A stretch of 64,000 nt of DNA from an uncultured bacterium (GCA_937967455.1 CALCJK010000013.1:6302-70301), one strand, 5' to 3'; counted from the stretch's first letter, positions 1,624 to 21,098 are shown. The notes: generated by a model from the letters alone, not told the origin. Numbers and translations: made by a program.

Positions 1624-3669
1624 TTATTTTTGCCACTGTTTTAGCCAGTCCAGCATTGTTTGATACCATAATTCAATATTTTGTGGCTTCATTATCCAAT
1701 GTCCTTCATCAGGAAACCAGAGGAATTTTGATGGAATGCCTCTGCGTTGAAGTGCTGTAAATAGTTCCATACCTTGTTGAATTGGGACACGGAAATCCAG
1801 CTCTCCATGTGTTATTAAAGTTGGAGTTTTAAAATTTTTAGCAAGGTAATTTGGTGACCATTTTAAATATAATTCAGGATTTTCCCATGGAGTGCCACCC
1901 ATTTCCCATTCTGGGAACCAGAGCTCTTCTGTTGTTCCATACATTGCTTCTAAATTATAAACACCAGCATGAGTTATTAAAGCAGCAAAACGATCGGTGT
2001 TTCCCAAAATCCAGTTAACCATATAGCCACCGAAACTCCCACCATATGCATATAATCGGTTGGGATCGATATAGCCAGTTGAAATCATATAATCTACTGC
2101 TTTCATCAAACTGATGTAACAATTTCCACCCCAATCTTTGCTGATAGCTTCAACAAATTTTTGTCCGTAACCAGGGCTACCTTCTGGATTTGTAAACATG
2201 ACAACATAACCGGCTCCAGGAAATACTTGCCAATCGGCTCTAAAAGCATTTCCAAACATTTGTTGAGGGCCGCCATGAATGATTAGCAATAATGGATATT
2301 TTTTTGATGGATTGAAATCCGGTGGTTTAACGATCCATCCATGCACTTTACCATCTGCACCATCAAACCAAACTTCTTCTCCTTTAGCTAATTTTACTTC
2401 GTTAAAAAAGTTTTTATTAATGTTTGTAACCTGTTTTAATTCTAGTTTCTTCAAATCGAAAGTAAAAATTTCATTTGGCTTGGATATTTCTCTGCGAGTA
2501 AAAGTGAGAAAATTTCCATTTTTGGATATACGCAGATTTTCATGCCAGAAGGGTCCGCCAAGAACCGTCTGGATCGTGCGGTCTAAGGTAATAGAGTAAA
2601 TAGATATATTGCCTTTTACTTCGGCGGAGAAATAAATTTTCTTTGAGTCATTACTCCAGACGAGGTCGTCAACCCAATTATCAAAATTGCTTTCGTCAGT
2701 TAAAATTTTTGTTTCGCCAGTAATTTTATTATATAAAAGTATGCGCCAGAGATCAGATTCATATCCGTAAGTTTTCTGCGAGCGATATGCAATGTATTTC
2801 CCATCTGGAGAATAACGAGGTGAAACATCAGCTCCCTGACTAATACTGATTTTTCGTGGTTCACCACCAGTTACTGGTATTACATAAATATCGTTATTTG
2901 TACTTTCTGCCAACTTTTTATCCATATTAGTACTAAAAGCAATCTCTTTCCCATCTGGTGAAATTTGTAAATCTTCATTTCCGTTTAACGCAATTGGAGG
3001 TATAGTGAATTTGCCATTCGTCAATTGTTTTATATTTTTCCCGTCGATATCTGTTTGAAAGATGTGGTTTCTTGTTTCATTAATCCACACATTCCAGTGT
3101 CTATATAGCAGTTCATCAATTATTCTGGCTTGTATTTTACTTTCTGATTTTTCTCTGTTTTTTGTTTCATTACAGATTTTATCTTTTGACCAATCTCCAG
3201 TATAACATTCTGGGAAAATGTTTGAAAGGAAAAATAGAGATTTTCCATCTGGAGCCCAGATGTGATTTGAAGTTCCTGAAGGCATTGATGTAATTTTTTT
3301 TGCTTCACCACCCTGCACATTTATCAAATAAATTTGTGGTGAGCCATCTCGAGTTGATTGGAATGCTATATACTTTCCATCTGGTGACCATCTTGGCCTT
3401 TCATCAGCTTTTGGACTATTTGTAAGCTGGAATAATTCACCACTCAATGTTGATACAAGCCATATGTCACTATTGCTGCTATTTTTTTCTTTGTTTATTG
3501 TTGTAGCGGTAAAAGCAATCCATTTGCCATCCGGTGAGATTTGTGGATCTGAAACTCGTGTAAACTTAAAAATGTCATCAATTTCAAATAATCTTTTTTC
3601 TTGTGCAAAAACATTTGCGAAGATCAGTAATAAAAATAGAGTTATTTTAATTTGTGTTTTATATTTCAT
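1624..3669 (-). CDS. secreted S9 family serine peptidase (prolyl oligopeptidase / acylaminoacyl-peptidase-like) with N-terminal beta-propeller
   Basis: N-terminal signal peptide. Repeated SPDGK propeller blades. C-terminal alpha/beta hydrolase with catalytic GGSFGGYM (GxSxGG) and a DFRVP...H triad context. Confidence 0.85.
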   Translation of the reverse strand: MKYKTQIKITLFLLLIFANVFAQEKRLFEIDDIFKFTRVSDPQISPDGKWIAFTATTINKEKNSSNSDIWLVSTLSGELFQLTNSPKADERPRWSPDGKYIAFQSTRDGSPQIYLINVQGGEAKKITSMPSGTSNHIWAPDGKSLFFLSNIFPECYTGDWSKDKICNETKNREKSESKIQARIIDELLYRHWNVWINETRNHIFQTDIDGKNIKQLTNGKFTIPPIALNGNEDLQISPDGKEIAFSTNMDKKLAESTNNDIYVIPVTGGEPRKISISQGADVSPRYSPDGKYIAYRSQKTYGYESDLWRILLYNKITGETKILTDESNFDNWVDDLVWSNDSKKIYFSAEVKGNISIYSITLDRTIQTVLGGPFWHENLRISKNGNFLTFTRREISKPNEIFTFDLKKLELKQVTNINKNFFNEVKLAKGEEVWFDGADGKVHGWIVKPPDFNPSKKYPLLLIIHGGPQQMFGNAFRADWQVFPGAGYVVMFTNPEGSPGYGQKFVEAISKDWGGNCYISLMKAVDYMISTGYIDPNRLYAYGGSFGGYMVNWILGNTDRFAALITHAGVYNLEAMYGTTEELWFPEWEMGGTPWENPELYLKWSPNYLAKNFKTPTLITHGELDFRVPIQQGMELFTALQRRGIPSKFLWFPDEGHWIMKPQNIELWYQTMLDWLKQWQK

Positions 3670-3688: not shown

Positions 3689-5740
3689 TTACTTTTTCAA
3701 ATATTTGTTGAGCCATTCGAAAACAGTTTTATGCCAGAGTTCACTATTAAGCGGTTTAAGTACTCCATGACCTTCATCAGGAAAATAAAGAAATCTTGAT
3801 TCTATGCCCATTCTTTGAAGGGTTGTAAAGAGTTGCATGCCTTCTGTAACAGGGACTCTATAATCAAGTTCATTATGAATAATCAACATTGGAGTTTTGT
3901 ATTTGAGAAGATTCAAAGCATATTTATGAGGAGAGAATTTATCATAAGCTTGTGGATTATCCCAAGGTGTACCGCTGTGTTCCCATTCATCGAACCAAAC
4001 TTCGTCAGTTGTGCCGTACATTGAATAAAAGTTCCAGATACTAGCATGAGTTATTATTGTTTTAAATTTATTTGTATGGGTTGCAAACCAGTTCATCATA
4101 TATCCACCATATGAAGCACCAGCAGCAGCCATTTTAGTTGGATCTACAAAATTTAGCTTTTCAACATATTCAATACCTTTTATTAAATCTTCATAAACTT
4201 TTCCACCCCAATCGCCTGTTATCTCGTTTACAAATTTTTGTCCAAAACCTGTAGAGCCACGAGGGTTTGGAGCAAATATAACATAATTTTGAGCAGCCCA
4301 TAGTTGTGGATTCCATCTATAATGCCAGCCATTTTCCCAAGCACCCTGTGGTCCACCATGTACGAGAAAAACTAAAGGATACTTTTTGTTAGGATCAAAA
4401 AATGGTGGTTTTATTAACCATGCCTGTATTGGAGTTCCATCTGCACCAGTGTATGTTATACTTTCAGCAGAAGAAAATGTAATGTTCGAAAATAAACTAT
4501 CGTTAAATGATGTAAGTTTTAATAAATTTTTTCCATCTATAGTTGATGAAAAGATTTCAATTGGCTTTTCAAGAGTTTGTCTGGTAAAGAATAGAAATTT
4601 TCCATCTGGAGAAATATGAATATCTGCATTTACTCCACCATTAACTATTTTGTTGATCTTATTTGTTTTTATGTCGATAGAATAAATTTGTTGGTTAGCG
4701 TTTTCTTCAGCGGGGAAAAATATTTTGCTGTCATCAGGTGACCACTGAAATGCTAAAACCCAGGAATCAAAACTTTCCGATAAGTTTTTGTGTGTACTGG
4801 TAGCTCTATCGTAAAGCATTAAATCCCATTTGTCGGCTTCAAATCCAGGTACTTTTTGAGCTCTATAAGCAATATATTTTCCATTTTTTGAGTAGCGTGG
4901 ATATCCATCGGCAGCTGGGTTTGTGGTTATTTGTTTTCGTGTTCTACCATCGATGCTAACAGTGAATATATCATGATTTGTGTTCCATGCTTCATTTTCA
5001 GCTGGTGCTGCTGTGTAAGCAATCTCTTTTCCGTCAGGTGAGAAGCAAAATTCATCACCTGCAGAAAATGTGGAAGATGTAGGTACAGCATCTCTATCAC
5101 CTGGTGTTAAGTTTTTTATTTCTTTGTTTTCAAGTGTAATCAGAAAAATATGTTGGCGTTTGTCTTCAACCCAGGTGTTCCAGTGCCTGTAAAGTAATTT
5201 TGTTATTATACGAGCTTTAGTTTTACTTTTTTCTTCGTCTTTATTTTTGTTTAATTCGTTGGCCTCAATGAAAGGTTTATCTGAAAATTCTGGATAGACA
5301 GATGACACAAAAGCAATCATTTTGCCATCGGGAGACCAAACTGGCTGTGAAGCACCTGTGTAAATATCTGTAAGTTGTTTTGCTTCACCAACAAATGGAT
5401 TAATCAACCATATTTGTGGAATTCCTGAGCGTGTTGACACGAAAGCAAGCGTTTTTCCATCTGGCGACCAGCGAGGATTATTATCATTTGCTGGACTTGT
5501 TGTTATGCGGCGTGCTTCACCACCACTTGAAGAAATTAGAAAAATATCACTGTTCATTTTGTTTTCATTTTTTATAACTTCGGTAACTACAAATGCAATC
5601 CATTTTCCATCCGGTGATAATTGTGGATCTGAAACTCTTTTAATACGAAACATATCCTCAATTTCCATCGCTCTTTTTTCCTGTGAAGTAGCGATTGATG
5701 AAACCAAAATAATTATCAGTAAAAACTTTAAATATTTCAT
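3689..5740 (-). CDS. secreted S9 family serine peptidase, tandem paralog of the upstream gene
   Basis: Signal peptide, SPDGK repeats, GASYGGYM catalytic Ser motif, C-terminal His. Co-linear similarity to 1624-3669. Confidence 0.85.
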   Translation of the reverse strand: MKYLKFLLIIILVSSIATSQEKRAMEIEDMFRIKRVSDPQLSPDGKWIAFVVTEVIKNENKMNSDIFLISSSGGEARRITTSPANDNNPRWSPDGKTLAFVSTRSGIPQIWLINPFVGEAKQLTDIYTGASQPVWSPDGKMIAFVSSVYPEFSDKPFIEANELNKNKDEEKSKTKARIITKLLYRHWNTWVEDKRQHIFLITLENKEIKNLTPGDRDAVPTSSTFSAGDEFCFSPDGKEIAYTAAPAENEAWNTNHDIFTVSIDGRTRKQITTNPAADGYPRYSKNGKYIAYRAQKVPGFEADKWDLMLYDRATSTHKNLSESFDSWVLAFQWSPDDSKIFFPAEENANQQIYSIDIKTNKINKIVNGGVNADIHISPDGKFLFFTRQTLEKPIEIFSSTIDGKNLLKLTSFNDSLFSNITFSSAESITYTGADGTPIQAWLIKPPFFDPNKKYPLVFLVHGGPQGAWENGWHYRWNPQLWAAQNYVIFAPNPRGSTGFGQKFVNEITGDWGGKVYEDLIKGIEYVEKLNFVDPTKMAAAGASYGGYMMNWFATHTNKFKTIITHASIWNFYSMYGTTDEVWFDEWEHSGTPWDNPQAYDKFSPHKYALNLLKYKTPMLIIHNELDYRVPVTEGMQLFTTLQRMGIESRFLYFPDEGHGVLKPLNSELWHKTVFEWLNKYLKK

Positions 5741-8383: not shown

Positions 8384-9739
8384 TTAGTTTATTAGACCTA
8401 ATTTTTTCCCTACTTTTATGAAGGCATCCAGAATTTGATCTAAATGTTCATCTTCGTGGGTTGCCATATAACTTGTACGCATCATCTGCATGCCTGGTGG
8501 TACACCTGGACTAATAAATGTATTTACGAACACTCCATTGTCAAATAACTCTTTCCAGAATTTAAATGCTAGTAAATCATCGCCGATGATTACGGGTATT
8601 ATTGCTGTTTGCCCATCTATTATTTTAAATCCAGCTTCCTTAAAGCCTTTGCGCATTTTATTAGAATTTTTAATTAATTTATCTATTCTTTCAGGTTCTC
8701 TTTCTAAAATTTCTAATGCTTTTAAAGCTGCAGCTACGGATGCTGGAGTTGGGCTAGCGCTGAAAATTAATGCTGAAGAATGATGTTTGAGATAATTGAT
8801 AACTCTTTCGGAACCTACAACAAAACCACCAAGCGAGGCAAATGTTTTGCTGAAAGTTCCAAAAGTTAAATCCACTTCATCTACAAGATTAAAATGGCTG
8901 GCTGTGCCACGCCCCCCTTTGCCAATTACTCCAACAGCGTGTGCATCATCAACTAAAATTCGAGCGTTATGCTTTTTAGCTATTGAAACAAGTCGTGGTA
9001 AATCTACAATATCGCCGGTTGTACTGAAAACTCCATCAGTTACAATTAATTTTCCGGCTTCGTATGGTATGCGTTTAATAACTCTTTCAAGATCGTCCAT
9101 GTCGTTGTGTTTATATCTCACAAACTCTGCTGACATACCTCTTGCCATAATAACTCCGGCAACAATGCTTGCATGATTATCTTTGTCTGTAATTATATAT
9201 TCACCTCTCTGAACCAATGTTGGGATTATACCTTGTGCAGTTTGATAACCAGTACTGAAGAGCAGACAAGCTTCCTTTCCCATAAACTTCGCGAGTTTAT
9301 ATTCAAACTCATTGTGAAGATCCAGTGTCCCTGTTAGATATCTTGAACCAGAACAACCTGTGCCATATTTTTCTATTGCTTTTATCGCTGCTTCTTTAAC
9401 TTCGGGGTGAGCGGTTAAACCGAGATAGTTGTTTGAGCCTGCCATTATGATTTTTCGACCTTCAATTTGTACAACAGGACCTTCGTTTTCTTCAATTGGT
9501 CTGAAGTATGGATATAATCCAGCAGCTTTTACTTCATCTGCACGTGTGAAGTTGAAACATTTTTCAAACAAATCGACAGGGACTTTCTTCTCAGGTATTT
9601 TACTTTCCTTAATTTCAGTTTCTGTTGTAACTTCTGATTTATTTCTCCAATTGAATTTTCCTTTAAAAGCATTTGCCCAATCCGACATACTTTTGCGCCA
9701 ATTGAAGAAATAAGGCCTTTCTCTAAAGCGATTTGGCAT
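8384..9739 (-). CDS. spt: serine palmitoyltransferase-like alpha-oxoamine synthase
   Basis: 451 aa. A long block ([61 protein letters not shown]...RYKHND...[18 protein letters not shown]...[24 protein letters not shown]...GTFSK) is near-collinear with Sphingomonas SPT and fits it better than KBL or BioF. The PLP lysine lies in TFSK. There is a ~60 aa basic/aromatic N-terminal extension. Confidence 0.8.
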
Positions 9740-9825
9740 TTATTTTTCTCCTAAAATGCTAATTTGTTTAGAACTTTTATTTTTAATATACTTTATATAT
9801 TTCAAAAAGTCAATCAATTACAATT

Positions 9826-11189: not shown

Positions 11190-12440
11190 TTGAATATAAA
11201 GCTTACTAACATAAAACAACTCGTTACTGTTTCTCACGAATTATCTCGCCCTAAAAACAAACACTTCCGTGTAGGCGTGGAAATGAGTGAACTTGCTATT
11301 ATTGAAAATGCCGCACTTGTGATTGAGAACGGTATTATAACTTTTTTCGGTAAAATGCAGGACCTTCCTTCTAATGATTTTAATGAAATTGATTGTACCG
11401 ATAAAGTAGTAATGCCCGGCTTTGTGGATTCTCATACTCATCTTTTGTTTGCAGGTAGCAGAGAAGAAGAATTTGCAATGCGTTCGCGAGGATTTACCTA
11501 CCAACAAATTGCCGAACAGGGTGGAGGAATTTTATCAACCGTTGCTTTAACAAGAGCAGCAAGCAAAAAAGAATTAAAAAAGAACGCCCGCCGATATATT
11601 CATAAAATGATACAAAAAGGTACAACTACTGTTGAAATTAAAAGCGGTTATGGATTAAGTTTTGATGATGAAATTAAAATGCTTGAAGCCATTAAAGAGC
11701 TTCAAAAAGAAGAAATTATTACAATCTTATCTACATTTCTTGGTGCTCATGCATTTCCTCCTGAGTATAAAAATACCCCAGAACAATATGTAGATTTGAT
11801 TTGTAGCAAAATGATTCCTTATGTGGGCGAGCATAAATTAGCAGAATTTTGTGATGTTTTTTGCGAAAAAAATTATTTTAGTTTGAGTGATTCGGAAAAA
11901 ATTTTATCAACTGGAATAAATTACGGTTTAAAACCTAAAATACACGCAGAAGAGTTAAGTAATTCTGGAGGTGCAATTCTAGCAGGAAAATTAAAAGCTA
12001 CTTCAGCTGATCATCTTGAACATATATCTGATGAAGGAATTGCATCTATGAAAGAAGGCGGTGTAGTAGCTGTTTTACTACCAGGAGTTTCTTTCTTTTT
12101 GAATCATAATTATGCACCTGCGAGGAAGTTAATTGATAATGAAGTACCTGTTGCTATAGCTACCGATTTTAATCCAGGCTCTTGTATGTCATACTCAATG
12201 CCATTAATGCTAACCATTGCCTGCACACAGATGAAGATGAGCCCTGAAGAAGCAATTACTGCAGCAACAATCAATGCGGCTGCAGCACTAAATTTGTCAA
12301 GTGAAATAGGAAGCATAGATATTGGTAAAAAAGGAGATATGTTAATCCTGAATATTCCAAATTATAAATTTCTGGTTTATCATTTTGGTGAAAATCATGT
12401 TTATAAAGTAATAAAAAACGGTACATATTTAGAATTTTGA
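11190..12440 (+). CDS. hutI: imidazolonepropionase
   Basis: 416 aa amidohydrolase. Motifs PGFVDSHTHLLFAG...KIHAEE...DFNPGS are typical of HutI. Confidence 0.85.
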   Translation: MNIKLTNIKQLVTVSHELSRPKNKHFRVGVEMSELAIIENAALVIENGIITFFGKMQDLPSNDFNEIDCTDKVVMPGFVDSHTHLLFAGSREEEFAMRSRGFTYQQIAEQGGGILSTVALTRAASKKELKKNARRYIHKMIQKGTTTVEIKSGYGLSFDDEIKMLEAIKELQKEEIITILSTFLGAHAFPPEYKNTPEQYVDLICSKMIPYVGEHKLAEFCDVFCEKNYFSLSDSEKILSTGINYGLKPKIHAEELSNSGGAILAGKLKATSADHLEHISDEGIASMKEGGVVAVLLPGVSFFLNHNYAPARKLIDNEVPVAIATDFNPGSCMSYSMPLMLTIACTQMKMSPEEAITAATINAAAALNLSSEIGSIDIGKKGDMLILNIPNYKFLVYHFGENHVYKVIKNGTYLEF

Positions 12441-12456
12441 AACGGAAAGTGTAAAT

Positions 12457-13509
12457 ATGAAGAATTTAGTTGAATGTGTCCCAAATTTCAGCGAAGGACA
12501 AAATCATAATATAATTGATGCAATTGCAGGTGTGATAGATGCAACAGAAAATGTAAAACTCCTGAGTGTAGAACCTGATCGGGATTATAATCGAACTGTA
12601 ATTACTTTTGTAGGTACACCTGATGCTGTAAAGCAAGCAGCATTTGAAGCTACGAAAGTTGCTTCAGAAATGATTGATATGCGTCAGCACAAGGGCGAAC
12701 ATCCCAGAATTGGTGCTGTGGATGTTGTACCTTTTGTTCCATTGAGCGGAGTAACAATGGATGATTGTGTTAAGCTTGCAAACGAATATGGTAAAATGGT
12801 TTCAGATAAGTTAAATATTCCAGTATTTTTATATGAAGAAGCGGCTCGTAAATCTGATAGAAAGAATCTCTCAAATATCAGAAAAGGTGAGTACGAGGGA
12901 CTTGAGCAAAAATTAAAAGATCCTGAATGGTTTCCTGATTATCCAATTAGAGGGTCTAATCAGTTTAATCCCAAATCTGGAGCAACTGTTGCAGGCGCCC
13001 GCTATTTTTTGATTGCTTATAATGTAAATCTTAATACAAACGACAAAAACATTGCGCACGAAATTGCTTTGAGAATTAGAGAAAGTGGTAGACCTATGAA
13101 AAATGAAAAAGGTGAAATTGTTAAAGACTCAACGGGTAAAACTGTGAATGTGCCCGGCTCACTCAAAGCCGTGAAAGCAATGGGTGTTTTATTAGAAAGA
13201 TTCAATATTGCTCAGGTCTCCATAAATTTAACTAACTTTAATGTAACTCCTCCACATATAGCTTTTGAAGAAGTTAAAAAGGAAGCTCAAACACTGGGAG
13301 TTGAGGTTACAGGTAGTGAAATTGTTGGATTGGTTCCCAAAGATGCATTAATTACTGCTGGAAAGTTTTATTTGGGAGAACAACTTCAAACTTTGAATGT
13401 TTCAGAAATGGATTTAATTAATGTGGCTATACAATACTTGGGTTTGAATCAGCTTGAAACTTTTAATCCGTATAAAAAAATAATTGAATATATGATTGAA
13501 GGAGAATAA
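12457..13509 (+). CDS. ftcD: glutamate formimidoyltransferase (FTCD N-terminal transferase domain as a separate protein)
   Basis: Starts MKNLVECVPNFSEGQN, the hallmark of formiminotransferase. 350 aa. Confidence 0.85.
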   Translation: MKNLVECVPNFSEGQNHNIIDAIAGVIDATENVKLLSVEPDRDYNRTVITFVGTPDAVKQAAFEATKVASEMIDMRQHKGEHPRIGAVDVVPFVPLSGVTMDDCVKLANEYGKMVSDKLNIPVFLYEEAARKSDRKNLSNIRKGEYEGLEQKLKDPEWFPDYPIRGSNQFNPKSGATVAGARYFLIAYNVNLNTNDKNIAHEIALRIRESGRPMKNEKGEIVKDSTGKTVNVPGSLKAVKAMGVLLERFNIAQVSINLTNFNVTPPHIAFEEVKKEAQTLGVEVTGSEIVGLVPKDALITAGKFYLGEQLQTLNVSEMDLINVAIQYLGLNQLETFNPYKKIIEYMIEGE

Positions 13510-13510
13510 A

Positions 13511-14140
13511 ATGTTAACAAAGAAAACTATTGAATCCTTTTTGGATGAGTTAGCGTCAAATTCACCTGCACCTGGAGGTGGGAGCGCAGCTGCATTAACT
13601 GCTGCAATTGGAACAGCCCTTATATCAATGGTTTGCAACTTGACTATAGGTAAGAAAAAATATCTCGATGTAGAAGAAGAAATGAAAAAAATTTTACAAG
13701 ATTCAGAAAGAATAAGAAAACACTTTACCGAATTAATTAATAAAGATACAGAAGCCTTTAAGAAAGTTATGGAAGCATATTCCTTACCAAAAGAAAGTGA
13801 TGCACAAAATTCTCTAAGAAATGCTGCAATTGATTCGGCAATGAAAGAAGCTGCACTTGTCCCACTTGAAGTGATGAAACATTGTGTAGATGCTCTTGCA
13901 CTTTCAAAAATTGTGGCTCAGAAGGGGAATAAAAATTCAATTAGTGATGCAGGTGTAAGTGCACTTTTATTGGTTTCTGCATCTGAATCTGCATATTTGA
14001 ATGTGAAAATTAACTTAAATTCTATAAATGATTCTGACTTTGTTGGTTGGAAGAATGAAGAGGCAAACTCAACACTCAATACTTGCAGAAAATATCAAAC
14101 TGAAATTATGAATTCTGTATATGAGACATTAGAGTCTTAA
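13511..14140 (+). CDS. formimidoyltetrahydrofolate cyclodeaminase (FTCD C-terminal domain as a separate protein)
   Basis: Likely start MLTKK at 13511 after GGAG; the ORF track starts at 13496. The PAPGGGSAAAL motif marks the cyclodeaminase/cyclohydrolase family. Confidence 0.8.
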   Translation: MLTKKTIESFLDELASNSPAPGGGSAAALTAAIGTALISMVCNLTIGKKKYLDVEEEMKKILQDSERIRKHFTELINKDTEAFKKVMEAYSLPKESDAQNSLRNAAIDSAMKEAALVPLEVMKHCVDALALSKIVAQKGNKNSISDAGVSALLLVSASESAYLNVKINLNSINDSDFVGWKNEEANSTLNTCRKYQTEIMNSVYETLES

Positions 14141-14152
14141 GAATATCTCTTA

Positions 14153-15601
14153 TTAAACTTTCCAATAAACCTTGGTAAAAATTACCAAAGCTGTAAATAG
14201 TTCAAGTCGTCCTATTATCATACAAAAACTCAAAATCCATTTTCCCAAAAAATGAATGTTAGAATAGTTATCCATAGGTCCAACACTACCTAATCCTGGG
14301 CCTATATTACTCAGAGATGCTATCACCGCTCCCATTGCGGATATTATGTCCATTCCTAAAATTGTCATTATAATAGTTGCAACTACAAAAGTAGTAACAA
14401 AGAGTACAAAAAAAGCCAGAATATTATTGATGATGTCCTGTGGTACAGTTCTGTTGTTATACCTCACAGGTACGATTGCCTTTGGATGAATTAGTTTTCG
14501 AAGTTCTGCATTACCATTTTTCAGTAATATTAAAATTCTCATATTTTTAATTCCTCCAGCTGTTGAGCCAGCACAACCACCAATGAACATTAAAATAAGC
14601 AGAATAAATTGAATGGAATATGGCCAGATTTCGTAGTCAGCAGTTGAATAACCTGTCGTGGTTATTATAGATACAACTTGAAAAGCAGAATATCTTAATG
14701 CTGATGTAAATGAATTATAGTTACCAGAATTAATTAACAATAAAACTGAAATGAAAATGCTAATAAGTACGATTGATAGATAAAATACAAATTCATTATT
14801 TTTGAAATATTCTCTTACATCTCCTTTTAAAGCTTTATAATGAAGTACAAAATTGGCACCTGCAATGAACATAAAAACAATTATGACGGTATCAATGTAA
14901 GGTGAATTATAATGCGCAATACTCAAATTTCTTGTGGAGAAACCTCCTGTAGCCATAGTAGTAAAAGAATGAGATAGGGCATCAAATATATTCATACCAC
15001 CTAAAAGGAGTAGAAGTGTTTGAACAAAGGTAAACATTACATAAACTTGCCAAAGGACTTTTGCTGTTTCACCGATTCGAGGTTTTATTTTATCAACAGT
15101 TGGGCCTGGTGATTCAGCTTTGAAAAGTTGCATACCACCTACGCCCAATATAGGAAGAATAGCCAGTGAGAGCAGAATTATTCCCATACCACCCAACCAT
15201 TGCGTCATAGAACGCCAGAAGAGCAAACCTTTTGGCAGTGCTTCCACATTTGTAAGAATAGATGCCCCGGTTGTTGTAAAACCTGACACAGTTTCAAAGA
15301 ATGCATCTGTGAAAGAAGGGATTGCCCCAGATACAACATATGGAATTGATCCAAATAAACTCATAGCTAACCAGGCGAACGTGACTATAGCAAAAGCTTC
15401 ACGCGGATTTACCTCAATTTCAGGTGTTTTTAAAAAAAACCAAGTTAAAATGCCTATAACAATGCATAAAATTGATGAACCTAAAATTGGTAGCAAGCTG
15501 CTATCTGAATAGTAAAGGGAAAATGGTAATGATAAGAGCATTGCTACACCAATGAAAAAAACGATAATTCCTAATATAGAAATTACAAGCTTAATGTTCA
15601 T
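14153..15601 (-). CDS. trkH: Trk-type potassium uptake membrane protein TrkH
   Basis: 482 aa polytopic membrane protein. Repeated TTTG / GYS selectivity-filter-like segments (TTGASILT, TTGYSTAD) typical of the TrkH/KtrB family. Confidence 0.85.
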   Translation of the reverse strand: MNIKLVISILGIIVFFIGVAMLLSLPFSLYYSDSSLLPILGSSILCIVIGILTWFFLKTPEIEVNPREAFAIVTFAWLAMSLFGSIPYVVSGAIPSFTDAFFETVSGFTTTGASILTNVEALPKGLLFWRSMTQWLGGMGIILLSLAILPILGVGGMQLFKAESPGPTVDKIKPRIGETAKVLWQVYVMFTFVQTLLLLLGGMNIFDALSHSFTTMATGGFSTRNLSIAHYNSPYIDTVIIVFMFIAGANFVLHYKALKGDVREYFKNNEFVFYLSIVLISIFISVLLLINSGNYNSFTSALRYSAFQVVSIITTTGYSTADYEIWPYSIQFILLILMFIGGCAGSTAGGIKNMRILILLKNGNAELRKLIHPKAIVPVRYNNRTVPQDIINNILAFFVLFVTTFVVATIIMTILGMDIISAMGAVIASLSNIGPGLGSVGPMDNYSNIHFLGKWILSFCMIIGRLELFTALVIFTKVYWKV

Positions 15602-15603
15602 GA

Positions 15604-16947
15604 TTATTTGCTAAAAAGTTTTTCAACTTCAGGAATTGCTTTTGGGAGTGAAAATACCACAACTCTTTCATTTGGATTTATTTTTGTTGTTCCAACGGGT
15701 ATAATTACAGAATTGCTGCTCATTACACATCCAATAATTGCACCTTTTGGGAACTCTAAATCTTTAAGAGGTTTCTTTGTGATATCAGAGCCTTTTTGAG
15801 CTACTAGTTCAATTACTTCAGCATCAACTCCATGTAATGTTGCAACTGATAAAATTTGACCTTTACGGATAAATTTTAGAATTATCTGTGCAGCTGAAAG
15901 TTTTTTATTAACTGCAACATCAAGACCAATTGTGGCTGCAAGTGTTACATAGTCAGTATTTTCTACTAGTGCGATCGTTCGTGGGACACCAAGATGTCGT
16001 GCCATTAGACAGGAAATTATGTTTGTTTCCTCATCCTCAGTAACAGCAATATAAACATCCATATCCATAATGCCTTCTTTAGCAAGTAAATCTATATCCG
16101 AACCTTCACCATGAATAATTAGAGCTTTATGCAGTTTGTCTGCTAATTCTAAGGAGCGATCTTTGTTTGATTCCACAATTTTTACATTAACTTCTTCTTC
16201 TAATTTTTCAGCTACCATGCTTCCGATTCTTCCTCCACCTAAAATCATTACATTCTTAACTGATTCACCTTCCTTACCGGCAAGTCGTAAAATATCCTGC
16301 ACATATTCTGTTTTGCAGATTGCGAAAACTTGATCATTCTTTTTAAGTGTATCCTGACCTGATGGAATAATTGTACGCACACCTCTACTGATTGCAACAA
16401 TCCTGAAAACCAGTTCATCATATTCTTTAACTACATCTTGAACAGTTTTGTTGATAATTGGACTCAACGTATCTAACCGCATACCTATTATTTGAACTTT
16501 ACCGTCGCCAAATTCAAGTACATCTGTGGCAGCTGCCCTTTTAACCAGCCGCACAATTTCTTCGGCTGTTACTGCCTCTGGATTTATTGAAAGATTAATT
16601 CCAAGTTCCTCTGGTTTTACAAGAGCTTCTGAATTATTAAATTCTGAGCTGCTAATACGAGCAATTGTTCGTTTTGCGCCCAGTTTGCTTCCAATCTGAC
16701 AGGCAAGTATATTTACCTCGTCGTGAGGAGATACAGCAACCAATAGATCTGCTTCTTCAGCGCCTGCCTGCGATAGTAAAACTGGACTTATACCGCTCCC
16801 TTTATAAGCTATTACATCTAAATTTTCGTTTACTCTATTTACTCGATCTTCATCACTGTCTATTACCACAATATCGTGATGTTCCTGTGATAGAATCTTT
16901 GCTAAGTGAAATCCAACTTCACCTGCACCTACAATAATAATCTTCAA
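15604..16947 (-). CDS. trkA: Trk potassium uptake regulatory protein TrkA (two RCK/NAD-binding domains)
   Basis: 447 aa. MKIIIVGAGEVG plus a second GGGRIG Rossmann motif. Immediately upstream of trkH. Confidence 0.85.
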   Translation of the reverse strand: MKIIIVGAGEVGFHLAKILSQEHHDIVVIDSDEDRVNRVNENLDVIAYKGSGISPVLLSQAGAEEADLLVAVSPHDEVNILACQIGSKLGAKRTIARISSSEFNNSEALVKPEELGINLSINPEAVTAEEIVRLVKRAAATDVLEFGDGKVQIIGMRLDTLSPIINKTVQDVVKEYDELVFRIVAISRGVRTIIPSGQDTLKKNDQVFAICKTEYVQDILRLAGKEGESVKNVMILGGGRIGSMVAEKLEEEVNVKIVESNKDRSLELADKLHKALIIHGEGSDIDLLAKEGIMDMDVYIAVTEDEETNIISCLMARHLGVPRTIALVENTDYVTLAATIGLDVAVNKKLSAAQIILKFIRKGQILSVATLHGVDAEVIELVAQKGSDITKKPLKDLEFPKGAIIGCVMSSNSVIIPVGTTKINPNERVVVFSLPKAIPEVEKLFSK

Positions 16948-17105: not shown

Positions 17106-18230
17106 TCAAATTTCTATTTTAACAGGTTGTGATTTCTTTTTGTTCTTTTTTAGATATTTTTGCTCTATATTATTGTTAGGTTCTGGTTCTTCTTCTACAT
17201 CAGGGTAAGTAAATATATCGTATTTATAATTTCTCAAAATTATTTGATTTCCTGCTCTACCAATTACATATTGTGGAAGTAAAGGTATTTTTCCTCCACC
17301 ACCAGGAGCATCAATTACATAATATGGAATTGCCAGACCCGATGTATGACCTCTCAATTTATCCATAATTTCCAATCCCTTACTAACAGGAGTTCGGAAA
17401 TGGTTTGCACCTTTTGTTATATCAGCCTGGTAAAGGTAATAAGGTTTTACACGAATTGTTAAAAGTTTACGCATTAGTTCGAGCATAACATCTGGGTCAT
17501 CGTTGACACCTTTCATTAAGACAGCTTGGTTACCAAGTGGAATTCCAGCATCAGCTAACAGCTCACAAGCTTTTTTAGCTTCTGGTGTTATTTCCCAGGG
17601 ATGATTAAAATGTGTATTTACGTAAATTGGATGATATTTTTTGAGCATCTTTACAAGTTTTGGAGTTATTCTCTGTGGCAATACGCAGGGCATTTTAGTG
17701 CCAAGTCGAATTATTTCAACATGTTGTATTTCTCTTAATCCCTTTAGAATTTTTTCCAGCATATAGTCGGTAAGCATAAGTGGATCACCACCAGACAGGA
17801 TCACATCCCTGACTTCAGGATGTTTGGCTATATAATCTATCCCATCTTGTATGAATTTCATTCTAATTTTGGAGGAATCACCAACTTTCCTTTTTCGTGT
17901 GCAAAAGCGACAGTACATTGAACATTGGCTTGTTGTTAAGAAAAGTACTCTGTCCGGATATCTATGCACGATACTTGGTACTGGACTATGTGAATCTTCT
18001 GCTAACGGGTCTTCAGGAAGTCCATCTTCTTCTAATTCTTTTTCAGAAGGTATACATTGAAGCCAGATTGGATCACCTGGATATCTAATCAAACTTAAGT
18101 AGTACGGATTAATTCGGATGTGAAATAATTTATTAAGTCGCTCAGCCAATTGTTCATCGAAACCAAACCTTTCTATCAAATCTTTAGCACTGTCAACGCT
18201 TTTGCGTAGCATCTCTTGCCAGAGTTCCAT
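17106..18230 (-). CDS. KamA-family radical SAM lysine 2,3-aminomutase
   Basis: 374 aa. CSMYCRFCTRKRK matches the CxxxCxxC radical-SAM motif in the KamA context (KamA CSMYCRYCTRRR). It is closer to KamA/AblA than to EpmB. Lysine-rich C-terminal tail. Confidence 0.8.
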   Translation of the reverse strand: MELWQEMLRKSVDSAKDLIERFGFDEQLAERLNKLFHIRINPYYLSLIRYPGDPIWLQCIPSEKELEEDGLPEDPLAEDSHSPVPSIVHRYPDRVLFLTTSQCSMYCRFCTRKRKVGDSSKIRMKFIQDGIDYIAKHPEVRDVILSGGDPLMLTDYMLEKILKGLREIQHVEIIRLGTKMPCVLPQRITPKLVKMLKKYHPIYVNTHFNHPWEITPEAKKACELLADAGIPLGNQAVLMKGVNDDPDVMLELMRKLLTIRVKPYYLYQADITKGANHFRTPVSKGLEIMDKLRGHTSGLAIPYYVIDAPGGGGKIPLLPQYVIGRAGNQIILRNYKYDIFTYPDVEEEPEPNNNIEQKYLKKNKKKSQPVKIEI

Positions 18231-18270
18231 TTATACCTGTTTTCCTCCATTGTTTTTATTTAACATGATT

Positions 18271-18741
18271 TTAAAAGTATTTTCCATAAACTAAAAGGTC
18301 ATCTCCAATATTATAATAATCTTTAATTCTTGATAAAATCTGATATCCCGAACTTTCGTAAAACTTTCTGGTATTTTTATATTTTTCCTGTGAAGATGTT
18401 TCAATTACAATTAATCTGCCCCCATTTTGTTTAATTTTGGTTTCTGCAAAATTTATCAATTCTTTACCGATACCTTTACCTTGTTTATCTTTTTTAACAG
18501 CGATCCAGTATAAATCAAATGTCCCGGTGGTAAGTGGAGTTGGACCAATACAAATATATCCCAGCAAATTTTCGTTATTATCTGTGGCAGAGTATATGTC
18601 GTAATCTTTTTGATTTTTATTTGTTAAATAGATATCAACAAGTTCCATTGCAACTTCAATTTCTGCTGGTGTAAAAGCCTGTGTTTCTGTAAGGAGATTT
18701 ATTAGTTGTATTCGATCTTTTTCTAAAAATTTTCTAATCAA
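18271..18741 (-). CDS. GNAT family N-acetyltransferase (candidate beta-lysine N-acetyltransferase)
   Basis: 156 aa. Acetyl-CoA binding motif QGKGIGKEL. 4 bp overlap with the upstream ATP-grasp gene. Sits between the ATP-grasp ligases and kamA. Confidence 0.7.
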   Translation of the reverse strand: MIRKFLEKDRIQLINLLTETQAFTPAEIEVAMELVDIYLTNKNQKDYDIYSATDNNENLLGYICIGPTPLTTGTFDLYWIAVKKDKQGKGIGKELINFAETKIKQNGGRLIVIETSSQEKYKNTRKFYESSGYQILSRIKDYYNIGDDLLVYGKYF

Positions 18742-19829
18742 TTTAAAATTCTTTCTATTGCAAGTTCTACTATTTTTTTAATCATTTCCTCAAATGTGTA
18801 ACCTGCTGTTCTAGCTGAACGAGCAAAACCAGCATCTGCTGAAATATCGGGATTGGGATTAACTTCGAGTATATAGAGTTTAGAATTTTTATCCAATCTA
18901 AAATCTACTCTTGCATAGTCTCTGCAGCCAATTATTTTGTATGCTTTCAAAGCTAATTCAGATATTTCGTTTGCTAATTTTTCTGAAATCGGTGCAGGAC
19001 AAACGCCTTTTGTAAATTCGTATTCATCAGTACCCTTCATCCACTTTGCATTGTATGTAATAATTCTGTGATAATTGTCAGGTAATTGCGACATATCAAC
19101 TTCTGATATTGGAAGTACAACAGGTGGATTATTACCAAGTATTGCTGCATTTAGTTCTCTGCCATCTATATATTCTTCTATAAGTGCAGGTTGCTTGAAT
19201 TTTGAAAGTATATATTCGACTTGTTTTTTCAGGCTTTCAAAGTTATAAACAACAGAATTATTGTTTATACCTACACTTGCATCTTCTCTTGATGGTTTTA
19301 TTATCAAGGGGAAGTTTAGATTCCTATCAAGTTGAAATGGTATAGATTCAACTATTTGAAATTTTGGAGTTGGAAGGTTATGATAAAGTAATATTTCTTT
19401 AACTCTTGCTTTTTGTTGAGCCAGACCGAGCGTAAAAGCGGTTGCTCCAGTATATGAAATATTTAATAATTCATAAACACCTGCTACATGCATTTCGTGC
19501 ATTGATTCGGTACCGATACTCTCACATAAATTGAAGATTACATCTGGTTTCTCGTTTTGAAGAAATTTAAAAAGTTTCTCTATATTACTGTTTACATTAA
19601 ATAAAGTTGTTTTGAATCCTGAAGAATGGAGAGCTTTTTCGATGTCCCTCATTTCGTCAACTACACCTACTTCGGAGAGGTCAACGGTGTATCCCAATTC
19701 AGATAAATTTGAATTTTGTGAAGAAACATTTAAACCAAGTTCTGAAACAAATTTTCTTTCTTCTGCATCGAGAACGGTTGGTTCGTTGTAAATAATAGCT
19801 ACGGTTAAATTTTCCTTATTTTTTATCAT
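18738..19829 (-). CDS. D-alanine--D-alanine ligase-family ATP-grasp enzyme (paralog B)
   Basis: 363 aa. Ddl-like segments DVIFNLCES...YTGATAFTLGLAQQKARVKEIL and PLIIKPSREDASVGI...EEYIDGRE. C-terminal ATP-grasp motif LEVNPNP. Confidence 0.75.
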   Translation of the reverse strand: MIKNKENLTVAIIYNEPTVLDAEERKFVSELGLNVSSQNSNLSELGYTVDLSEVGVVDEMRDIEKALHSSGFKTTLFNVNSNIEKLFKFLQNEKPDVIFNLCESIGTESMHEMHVAGVYELLNISYTGATAFTLGLAQQKARVKEILLYHNLPTPKFQIVESIPFQLDRNLNFPLIIKPSREDASVGINNNSVVYNFESLKKQVEYILSKFKQPALIEEYIDGRELNAAILGNNPPVVLPISEVDMSQLPDNYHRIITYNAKWMKGTDEYEFTKGVCPAPISEKLANEISELALKAYKIIGCRDYARVDFRLDKNSKLYILEVNPNPDISADAGFARSARTAGYTFEEMIKKIVELAIERILN

Positions 19830-19832
19830 TTT

Positions 19833-20951
19833 TTAATTAGATATAAATTTTTGAAGTATTCCATAGCGTTCTAAAGCAATATTTAAAACTTCCTGTATTA
19901 ACTGATTGTAAGACATTCCTGCAGTACGGGCAGCTTTTGGGAAACAGGAGTTATCTTCAGGTTTTGGTAAAATTCCAGGTAGTGGATTTAGCTCTATTAT
20001 ATTAGCCTTACCTTTTGAATCAAGTCGCACATCGATTCTACACCAATCGCGACATCTCATAATTGTATAAGCCTTAGTGCATACCTCTTCTATTTCATTT
20101 TGTAATGCAGGAGAAATATTAGCTGGGCATTCGAAAATATTTAATGGAGATTCAGAGTTGTCCCAGATCCATTTTGCTTCATAAGAATAGATTGGGTTTA
20201 CATTATCAGGTAATGTATCGAATTTAATTTCAACAATGGGTAGGACCCTTAAATTTTTACCATTGCCTAAGATTGCAACAGTGAATTCTCTACCATCTAA
20301 AAATTCTTCAACAAGTGCAGGTTGATTGTAATTATTTAAAACAAAATTTACTTGCTCAATTAATTCATCAAAGTTTCGGACAATAGAGGAATTGAAAATA
20401 CCTTTACTTGAACCTTCGTGTTGTGGTTTTACGATACTTGGAAATTTAGTTGATATTCCAGCTAACTGTGATAATTCGCTTATTAGCGTGAAATGAGGAG
20501 TTGGGATATTATAGTAAGAAAGGATTTCTTTGGTCCTGGCTTTATCCAGGCAAATTGATAGAGTTAATGGATCGGAGCCTGTATAAGGAATTTGGAGAAA
20601 TTCTAACATTGCTGGAATTTGAGCTTCGCGAGAACTTCCACACATCCCTTCAGCTATATTGAATACAATATCGGGTTTTAATTCCTGTAACTTTTGATAT
20701 GCAAATTTGTCTGCCTCAATTAAAGTTACATTATGTTTTTCTGCGAGTGCTCTCCTAACAGCATCAACTGTTTCAAAAGTATCCCATTCTGCATATAAGT
20801 CGGATACCTTTGTAAGTTTATTTTTCTTTAATTGTTCAGGTTCACTATCTGAACAATCATCCTTTTCAGTATGCTCGCTATGATCTTCTCTAGTATTGTC
20901 TTCCTTTTTTAAATTAAAAACGAGCGCAACATTCAACGGAAGATTTATCAA
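19833..20951 (-). CDS. D-alanine--D-alanine ligase-family ATP-grasp enzyme (paralog A) with acidic low-complexity N-terminal extension
   Basis: 372 aa. Motifs DIVFNIAEG...YTGSDPLTLSICLDKARTKEIL, PSIVKPQHEGSSKGI, EEFLDGREF, ELNPLPG. Clearly paralogous to 18738-19829. Confidence 0.75.
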   Translation of the reverse strand: MINLPLNVALVFNLKKEDNTREDHSEHTEKDDCSDSEPEQLKKNKLTKVSDLYAEWDTFETVDAVRRALAEKHNVTLIEADKFAYQKLQELKPDIVFNIAEGMCGSSREAQIPAMLEFLQIPYTGSDPLTLSICLDKARTKEILSYYNIPTPHFTLISELSQLAGISTKFPSIVKPQHEGSSKGIFNSSIVRNFDELIEQVNFVLNNYNQPALVEEFLDGREFTVAILGNGKNLRVLPIVEIKFDTLPDNVNPIYSYEAKWIWDNSESPLNIFECPANISPALQNEIEEVCTKAYTIMRCRDWCRIDVRLDSKGKANIIELNPLPGILPKPEDNSCFPKAARTAGMSYNQLIQEVLNIALERYGILQKFISN

Positions 20952-21098
20952 CGAACTCGTTTGTATCTCACAATTTGTTATACATACTATTTAATTTTTT
21001 ACAGTTAAGTTTTATCTTAATCTGTAAAACACTACTATAATATAAACTTTTTTTTGTAGAAGTCAAGTAAAAAATGAATTTTTTTGAAAATTTTTTCT

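Follow-up and report, generated by a model that had tools for sequence, protein, structure and literature searches.

The locus considered here raises the question of what could be made by an operon that places two enzymes of the D-alanine-D-alanine ligase (Ddl) fold beside a small acetyltransferase and a lysine 2,3-aminomutase. The operon lies in a 64,000-nucleotide stretch of DNA from an uncultured bacterium (GCA_937967455.1, CALCJK010000013.1:6302-70301), the whole of which is referred to as the window. We read it as a self-contained cassette for the biosynthesis of a small beta-lysine-derived amide, with a product of di- or tripeptide size, an assignment whose chances we judge to be about even. 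All four genes are on the minus strand. The first, which has a TTG start, encodes ligase A (19833-20951; 372 aa) and is followed by the gene of a paralogous protein, ligase B (18738-19829; 363 aa); both are Ddl-fold ATP-grasp proteins matching PF07478 (Dala_Dala_lig_C) with E-values of the order of 1e-38 (1.5e-38 for A and 3.2e-38 for B). The third gene encodes a small GNAT acetyltransferase (18271-18741; 156 aa; PF13508 and PF00583), and the fourth a lysine 2,3-aminomutase of the KamA family of radical S-adenosylmethionine (SAM)/pyridoxal phosphate (PLP) enzymes (17106-18230; 374 aa; PF04055 and PF12544). According to the open reading frame (ORF) coordinates, 3 bp separate ligases A and B, ligase B and the GNAT overlap by 4 bp, and 40 bp separate the GNAT from KamA. 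The initial annotation of this DNA had described four tightly packed minus-strand genes with these domain identities; the ORF table and the Pfam and NCBIfam scans agree with it on both counts, the last gap being 40 rather than 39 bp.

The grouping of these genes goes far beyond chance. Relatives of ligase A were collected through an alignment of homologues and a subsequent scan of one genome per GTDB species, by which at least 574 species-level genomes were found to carry one. The best 80 loci, all of them with an A-type ligase, were kept, and the gene order of the cassette was read in them by tblastn with the window proteins. Six loci are cut by contig ends; of the 74 with sufficient DNA, 73 show the order A-B-GNAT-KamA, with median intergenic gaps across loci of 8, 1 and 17.5 nt. 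The sole exception is locus L053 (Ignavibacteriae), where the GNAT is not in its usual place. A gap of about 670 bp without recognisable match lies between ligases A and B of that locus (9077-9751). Four-gene loci in the same order occur in Ignavibacteriota, Kryptonia and Desulfuromonadales, the nearest relatives of the window being metagenome-assembled genomes (MAGs) labelled Ignavibacteriales or Bacteroidetes. The contig itself stems from metagenome assembly ERZ6864144, and one of the related loci, L041, is from a MAG assigned to Ignavibacterium album. RecG is encoded upstream of the cassette in 59 of the 80 loci, which argues for vertical inheritance within Ignavibacteriota, and this preserved synteny, together with a G+C content (0.32-0.36) that is the same as in the surrounding DNA, indicates that the cassette is native. 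Median identity to the window proteins is 60% for ligase A, 53% for ligase B, 49% for the GNAT, 51% for RecG and 82% for KamA. The same four genes stand amid unrelated flanks in MAG L064, Desulfuromonas versatilis (L084) and Geoalkalibacter (Desulfuromonadales), and the functional unit therefore consists of exactly these four genes. The flanks in Ignavibacteriota are housekeeping genes and include no transporter. The initial annotation had staked its reading on the ligases being conserved next to kamA in relatives, and that linkage is found across phyla, both in these loci and in the rearranged modules described below.

The window KamA matches the Clostridium KamA 2A5H with an E-value of 4e-123 and shares with it the CxxxCxxC cluster, R134, D293, D330 and the PLP lysine K337. 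CSMYCRFC is found at residues 103-110, GGGGK is also present, and the KamA motifs occur in 79-81 of the 81 family members. Two of the conserved residues, D293 and D330 (2A5H numbering), are ligands of the epsilon-amine of lysine. Ruzicka and Frey are said to have found that Lys and Asn replace this Asp pair in glutamate 2,3-aminomutase. Since the lysine-type residues, including the Asp pair, are kept in the window protein, it can soundly be inferred that its product is beta-lysine, as had been proposed. The protein passes the family model TIGR00238 (307.8 bits, cut-off 199.2); the best equivalog is AblA (483 bits), followed by glutamate 2,3-aminomutase (431), arginine 2,3-aminomutase (347) and EpmB (244), the last of which (TIGR03821) has a cut-off of 369 bits that KamA does not reach.

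Ligases A and B are 42% identical to each other, and B is 28% identical to Escherichia coli DdlB. Both score below all Ddl, Van and NCBIfam cut-offs; against NF002378 (cut-off 243 bits), ligase A reaches 200.3 bits and ligase B 166.1, and against TIGR01205 (cut-off 245.65 bits) they reach 169.6 and 145.2 bits, respectively. Residues K97, K144, E180, E187, K215, R255, D257, E270 and N272 (DdlB numbering) are kept in both, and the ATP-binding, Mg-binding and catalytic set is invariant or nearly so among 86 A-type and 83 B-type orthologues. Changes at the D-Ala site comprise H63E, Y216W and L282C in the A type, and H63E, S150A, Y210V/I, Y216W, G276D, S281A and L282G in the B type. The equivalent of E15, which in Ddl binds the amino group of the first substrate, is kept in the A type, the alignment at this point being uncertain in the B type. 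A second acidic residue is gained at the H63 position in both types, and one might speculate that it would suit a diamino substrate. The scores below the Ddl cut-offs and the altered substrate-site residues argue that these are not cell-wall Ddl enzymes, and thus they do not belong with the bona fide Ddl proteins whose company would have spoken against the initial annotation. Both are read as predicted active amino-acid ligases with substrates other than D-Ala. A second, bona fide ddl gene was not found in the 64-kb window. The AlphaFold2 (AF2) model of ligase A (predicted local distance difference test, pLDDT, 79), for which the top Foldseek matches were all Ddl (TM-score about 0.8), gave no substrate clue, and the similarity to the L-amino-acid-ligase structure 3VOT is weak (E=2.4e-06 for A and 8e-04 for B). 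The acidic low-complexity N-terminus previously noticed on one ligase is real: it is an insertion at residues ~18-54 of ligase A (20790-20900, minus strand), between the first strand and the first helix, and is disordered in the AF2 model (pLDDT <50). Its length and sequence vary among orthologues, and the A-type ligases of the rearranged modules lack it.

The best solved relative of the GNAT is 2R7H (E=3.5e-32), a structural-genomics entry without assigned function whose title reads 'putative D-alanine N-acetyltransferase' and whose protein comes from Oleidesulfovibrio alaskensis G20. Of the NCBIfam models, the GNAT matches rimI best, with 52 bits where the cut-off is 86. The AblB model TIGR03827, presumably part of the scanned NCBIfam library, is not among the six NCBIfam families matched by the GNAT at E<=0.001. 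Judged by these matches, the GNAT is not an AblB orthologue and is assigned to the 2R7H family instead. The equation of KamA and GNAT with the ablA/ablB pair, made in the initial annotation, does not hold by homology, the GNAT having no AblB match and KamA scoring 483 bits where AblA requires 525. Several stand-alone orthologues of the GNAT have been named 'D-alanine-D-alanine ligase' by the Joint Genome Institute (JGI). Both the JGI name and the D-alanine title of 2R7H were probably transferred from fusions or from the gene neighbourhood and are likely misleading.

A second layout of the module was found by sequence search with 2R7H and subsequent contig look-up. In Desulfovibrio mangrovi, a Woeseia MAG and three other genomes, the genes are arranged as KamA-ligase-ligase-(GNAT~deacetylase fusion)-GNAT. 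The first of these ligases, AG1, is 38% identical to window ligase A (207 bits, compared with 137 bits between A and E. coli DdlB), and the second, AG2, is about 30% identical to ligase B (128-140 bits, compared with 108 bits between B and DdlB). By these comparisons they are orthologues of A and B, respectively, and the duplication that gave rise to A and B is therefore older than the spread of the module. The additional, fifth gene encodes a protein of about 580 aa whose N-terminal part, some 230 aa long, is a GNAT-like domain fused to a C-terminal acetylpolyamine-amidohydrolase (APAH) domain, the latter matching acetylpolyamine amidohydrolase 6PHR with an E-value of 6e-75. Copies of this gene (L084 5891-7636; L087 7629-9386; L089 5268-7004; L091 5250-6980; L088 5505-7001) are 60% identical between distant taxa and match no NCBIfam family. 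It also lies directly upstream of the four-gene cassette in Desulfuromonas versatilis, whereas by tblastn neither the window nor the Ignavibacteriota loci contain a copy. The four-gene content given in the initial annotation thus stands for the window, and what it missed is that many versions of the module add this GNAT~APAH gene. The accessory gene suggests that a terminal aminoalkyl group is acetylated in a reversible manner.

Further links between these activities are provided by fusion proteins. An exhaustive search with ligase B returned 1712 cluster representatives at E<=1e-30, several of which are fusions. In P0415, ligase B is fused to a GNAT orthologous to that of the module (34% identity over the full length), and P0381 likewise combines an acetyltransferase and an ATP-grasp ligase in one polypeptide. 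Tandem-ligase fusions are represented by P0419, P0472 and P0488, while P0458 and P0508 (about 810 aa) carry an L-amino-acid-ligase-type ATP-grasp domain with LAL_C2 fused to a B-type Ddl-like ligase, a composition that suggests two-step peptide assembly in a single polypeptide. A fusion of DUF3109 to a Ddl-like domain is found in P0391. A third layout is present on a planctomycete-like contig (L095 7001-14161), which contains P0415 and comprises the ligase-GNAT fusion, a separate Ddl-like gene, AIM24, DUF3109 (Rv0495c family), KamA and a DUF3109-Ddl-like fusion. Elsewhere, a tandem Ddl-like fusion of 682 aa overlaps a Peptidase_S58 (DmpA/BapA-type) gene (L093 322-3509), with no KamA within 6 kb, and may belong to a related beta-peptide system. 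In D. mangrovi, a sigma-54 activator gene lies upstream of the module, and a sigma-54-type -24/-12 match, TGGCATATCTGTTGCT, is located directly past it, 97 nt upstream of KamA (L087 3457-3472, plus strand). Matches of this type occur at chance level across the whole L087 locus, and only the position is suggestive; it hints that the regulation of the module differs in D. mangrovi.

Taken together with the predicted activities, these arrangements allow a pathway to be proposed. KamA would convert L-lysine to beta-lysine, as its homology and its conserved substrate, PLP and Fe-S residues indicate. The dedicated GNAT would then acetylate one amino group, most likely the epsilon-amine, a choice made because of the analogy with AblB chemistry and because many versions of the module carry a deacetylase of the APAH type, which acts on terminal N-acetyl-aminoalkyl groups. 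One amide bond each would be made by ligases A and B, with an acyl phosphate as the intermediate, and ligase B would probably act together with the GNAT as a physical unit. N-acetyl-beta-lysine would be part of the predicted product, which could be a beta-lysine oligomer or could join beta-lysine to other amino acids. The cell would most likely retain this product in its cytoplasm, where it would serve as a solute or protectant, its role being the least certain part of the proposal. We give somewhat less than an even chance to the more far-reaching idea that the module defines a novel class of beta-lysine small peptides, namely N-acetylated beta-lysyl di- or tripeptides or short oligomers, in which acetylation and deacetylation serve as a switch or protecting group. 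If this were true, the compound would belong to the core metabolism of Ignavibacteriota and Kryptonia and would recur in Desulfobacterota, Gammaproteobacteria and a planctomycete-like genome; the two ligases would represent new specificities, as beta-amino acid ligases, within the Ddl family.

Around the operon, a promoter-like site (TTGACT-16-TATATT; 10/12 consensus match) lies upstream of ligase A at 21037-21066 on the minus strand; the total of such sites across the region equals the shuffled expectation, so the site stands as a consensus match only. Apart from a weak 5-pair match at 18842-18829, at background frequency, no terminator-like site in sense orientation was detected inside the operon. 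Downstream of KamA and on the same strand are trkA (15604-16947; NF007038 TrkA, 474 bits) and trkH (14153-15601; TIGR00933 TrkH, 358 bits). The gap between KamA and trkA measures 158 bp, and no terminator-like site was found in it, so that both genes may be co-transcribed with the predicted KamA operon. Among the 80 related loci, trkA and trkH adjoin the cassette only in L001 and L002, which are the window's own sequence, and they lie outside the conserved cassette. A histidine-utilisation-type block of ordinary composition, consisting of an amidohydrolase gene and genes for the N- and C-domains of formiminotransferase-cyclodeaminase, is convergent with trkH (11190-14140, plus strand). Two adjacent paralogous genes of the S9 prolyl-oligopeptidase/PD40 type are found at 1624-3669 and 3689-5740 on the minus strand, and a TGGCAA-N5-TTGCT motif recurs at the equivalent internal position in both, which fits paralogy and not a promoter. 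A search of the window for sigma-54 promoters gave two one-mismatch matches, the number expected by chance, both inside peptidase genes. An anti-phage defence function was also considered and rejected, PADLOC yielding only a marginal match of the radical-SAM protein to pVip (E=7e-4).

The adjacency of trkA and trkH in the window and the osmotic role of ablA elsewhere point, by analogy, to a compatible-solute function. In other bacteria ablA has been linked to Na+ and osmotic control (PMC9337991), and its osmotic role and regulation have also been described elsewhere (PMC3543383). Several observations weigh against this function or against the pathway as a whole. Judging from the record titles, the carriers of the cassette are mostly MAGs from groundwater, soil, peat and hot springs, that is, from mostly non-saline settings. 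A search with Rfam at gathering thresholds, covering the window and 11 related loci, gave no Na+, c-di-AMP or lysine riboswitch, a single tRNA being the sole match. The suggestion of a compatible solute in the initial annotation is therefore favoured by the trkA/trkH adjacency, which is confined to the window's own lineage, and disfavoured by the mostly non-saline carriers and by the lack of an osmotic riboswitch. As for the enzymes, KamA falls under the cut-off of the AblA equivalog TIGR03820 (483.3 versus 525.4 bits) and is without the C-terminal Zn-binding cysteines of the Clostridium enzyme. The GNAT is unrelated to AblB, so that epsilon-acetylation is proposed by analogy only. Distant B-type ligase relatives occur without KamA, as in L093 and in L094, an archaeal ligase-GNAT fusion, and the ligase-GNAT unit is therefore not intrinsically tied to beta-lysine. 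In addition, we infer the order of the steps, the site of acetylation and the substrates of the ligases alike.

These points make it necessary to weigh other explanations of the cassette. It is quite unlikely that the locus encodes a plain AblAB pathway, with the ATP-grasp genes being ordinary D-Ala-D-Ala ligases or otherwise unrelated neighbours. Such a pathway would agree with AblA as the best KamA equivalog (483 bits), with trkA and trkH directly downstream in the window, and with the Na+ and osmotic control of ablA in other bacteria (PMC9337991); it could also fit the annotation of Pcar_1401/1402, a KamA-acetyltransferase pair of Pelobacter carbinolicus, as ablA/ablB (PMC3543383). However, 73 of 74 loci, and modules in three gene orders, show the ligases inherited together with KamA and the GNAT; some relatives of the ligases are fused to the GNAT, their scores stay under the Ddl cut-offs, residues of their D-Ala site are replaced, and the GNAT shows no match to AblB. 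An equally low probability is given to the modification of a macromolecule. In that case beta-lysine or an acetylated peptide would become linked either to a protein, namely elongation factor P (EF-P) or a ribosomal one, much as by RimK/RimI, or to a precursor of peptidoglycan. In none of the loci examined is the module linked to a gene for EpmA (lysyl-tRNA synthetase-like) or to an efp, mur or rps gene. The EpmB score of KamA is below its cut-off (244 versus 369 bits), the accessory deacetylase belongs to the acetylpolyamine type, which is a small-molecule one, small transporters (DMT_6, MFS) stand beside some versions of the module, and Ddl-type active sites accommodate two small amino acids. 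What would speak for this alternative is that RimI, although under its cut-off, is the best NCBIfam match of the GNAT, that Ddl is part of cell-wall synthesis and the KamA relative EpmB makes beta-lysine for EF-P, and that the inheritance is vertical and core-like (median identity of 82% for KamA compared with 51% for RecG).

The cassette might also make a product that is exported or polymeric, such as a beta-lysine oligomer or polymer serving as a nitrogen store like cyanophycin, or a secreted metallophore or antibiotic, a possibility that we consider rather unlikely. Peptidase_S58 includes beta-peptide-cleaving aminopeptidases, and one of the tandem-ligase fusions is encoded beside a gene of this family. 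The sigma-54 activator and the -24/-12-like site upstream of the D. mangrovi module, as well as MFS, DMT_6 and TonB-dependent receptor genes near two modules of the second layout, or type II (L089 and L091), could be understood in the same way. However, none of these neighbours is conserved, the Ignavibacteriota flanks are housekeeping genes without a transporter, and no enzyme of degradation accompanies the module consistently. The microviridin proteins MdnB, MdnC and MdnD likewise comprise two ATP-grasp ligases and a GNAT, and the cassette matches this gene content with a radical-SAM enzyme in addition. It is nevertheless very improbable that the cassette is a microviridin-like cluster for a peptide made by the ribosome and modified after translation (RiPP), whose ligases and GNAT would tailor a ribosomal precursor. 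No conserved small ORF was found up to 500 bp away on either side in about 80 loci, where only fragments of flanking genes were recovered; moreover, the ligases are of the Ddl fold and not of the RimK/MdnC type, and the residues by which free lysine is bound are preserved in KamA.

With the synthesis of a small beta-lysine-derived amide as the preferred reading, the enzyme families involved are all known, and the logic resembles that of AblAB combined with an Ngg-like synthesis of an acetylated peptide. A full-text literature search found no paper describing the module, the only related statement being the annotation-level ablA/ablB guess for Pelobacter. The recurrence of the cassette in several bacterial phyla suggests that bacteria commonly make its product and that this metabolite has likely gone unrecognised. 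If the product were identified, two large subfamilies that currently bear the mistaken name 'D-alanine--D-alanine ligase', and the 2R7H GNAT family too, would gain a function, and beta-lysine would gain a fate in addition to N-acetyl-beta-lysine, EF-P modification, lysine fermentation and antibiotics. The cassette could also supply beta-amino-acid-ligating ATP-grasp enzymes of use in biocatalysis. For the annotation of MAGs, the mis-annotated cassette ligases inflate the apparent copy number of ddl.

Comparison with known systems places the cassette between several of them. As in the AblA/AblB systems of methanogens and green sulfur bacteria and in yodP-kamA of Bacillus, an aminomutase gene adjoins an acetyltransferase gene, with beta-lysine as the likely first intermediate and an acetylated amine as the likely second. 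However, the window GNAT has 156 aa and belongs to the 2R7H family, the window KamA is below the AblA cut-off, and the AblAB route has no counterpart to the two obligatorily linked ATP-grasp ligases. With the Ddl/VanA family, the cassette ligases have in common the fold (Foldseek TM-score about 0.8), the ATP, Mg and catalytic residues and, by prediction, the acyl-phosphate joining of two small amino acids, whereas they are paired, lack a mur/fts context and occur alongside KamA and a GNAT. The L-amino acid ligases BacD/YwfE, RizA and TabS are likewise ATP-grasp enzymes joining unprotected amino acids, and a domain of this type is fused to some B-type relatives (P0458 and P0508), but the cassette ligases are without LAL_C2 and match 3VOT only weakly. 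The APAH enzymes 6PHR and 3Q9B resemble the accessory gene of the rearranged modules in its APAH-type domain (E=6e-75), which is there fused to the N-terminal GNAT-like domain of about 230 aa and is not found near the Ignavibacteriota cassettes. In the synthesis of N-acetylglutaminylglutamine amide (NAGGN) by the bifunctional enzyme Ngg and AsnO, an acetyltransferase is coupled to an ATP-grasp ligase, presumably not of the Ddl type; P0415 and P0381 show such a coupling in a single polypeptide. The proposed product of the cassette would, like NAGGN, be a small N-acetylated peptide solute, although it would be made without an amidotransferase and from a beta-amino acid supplied by a radical-SAM mutase.

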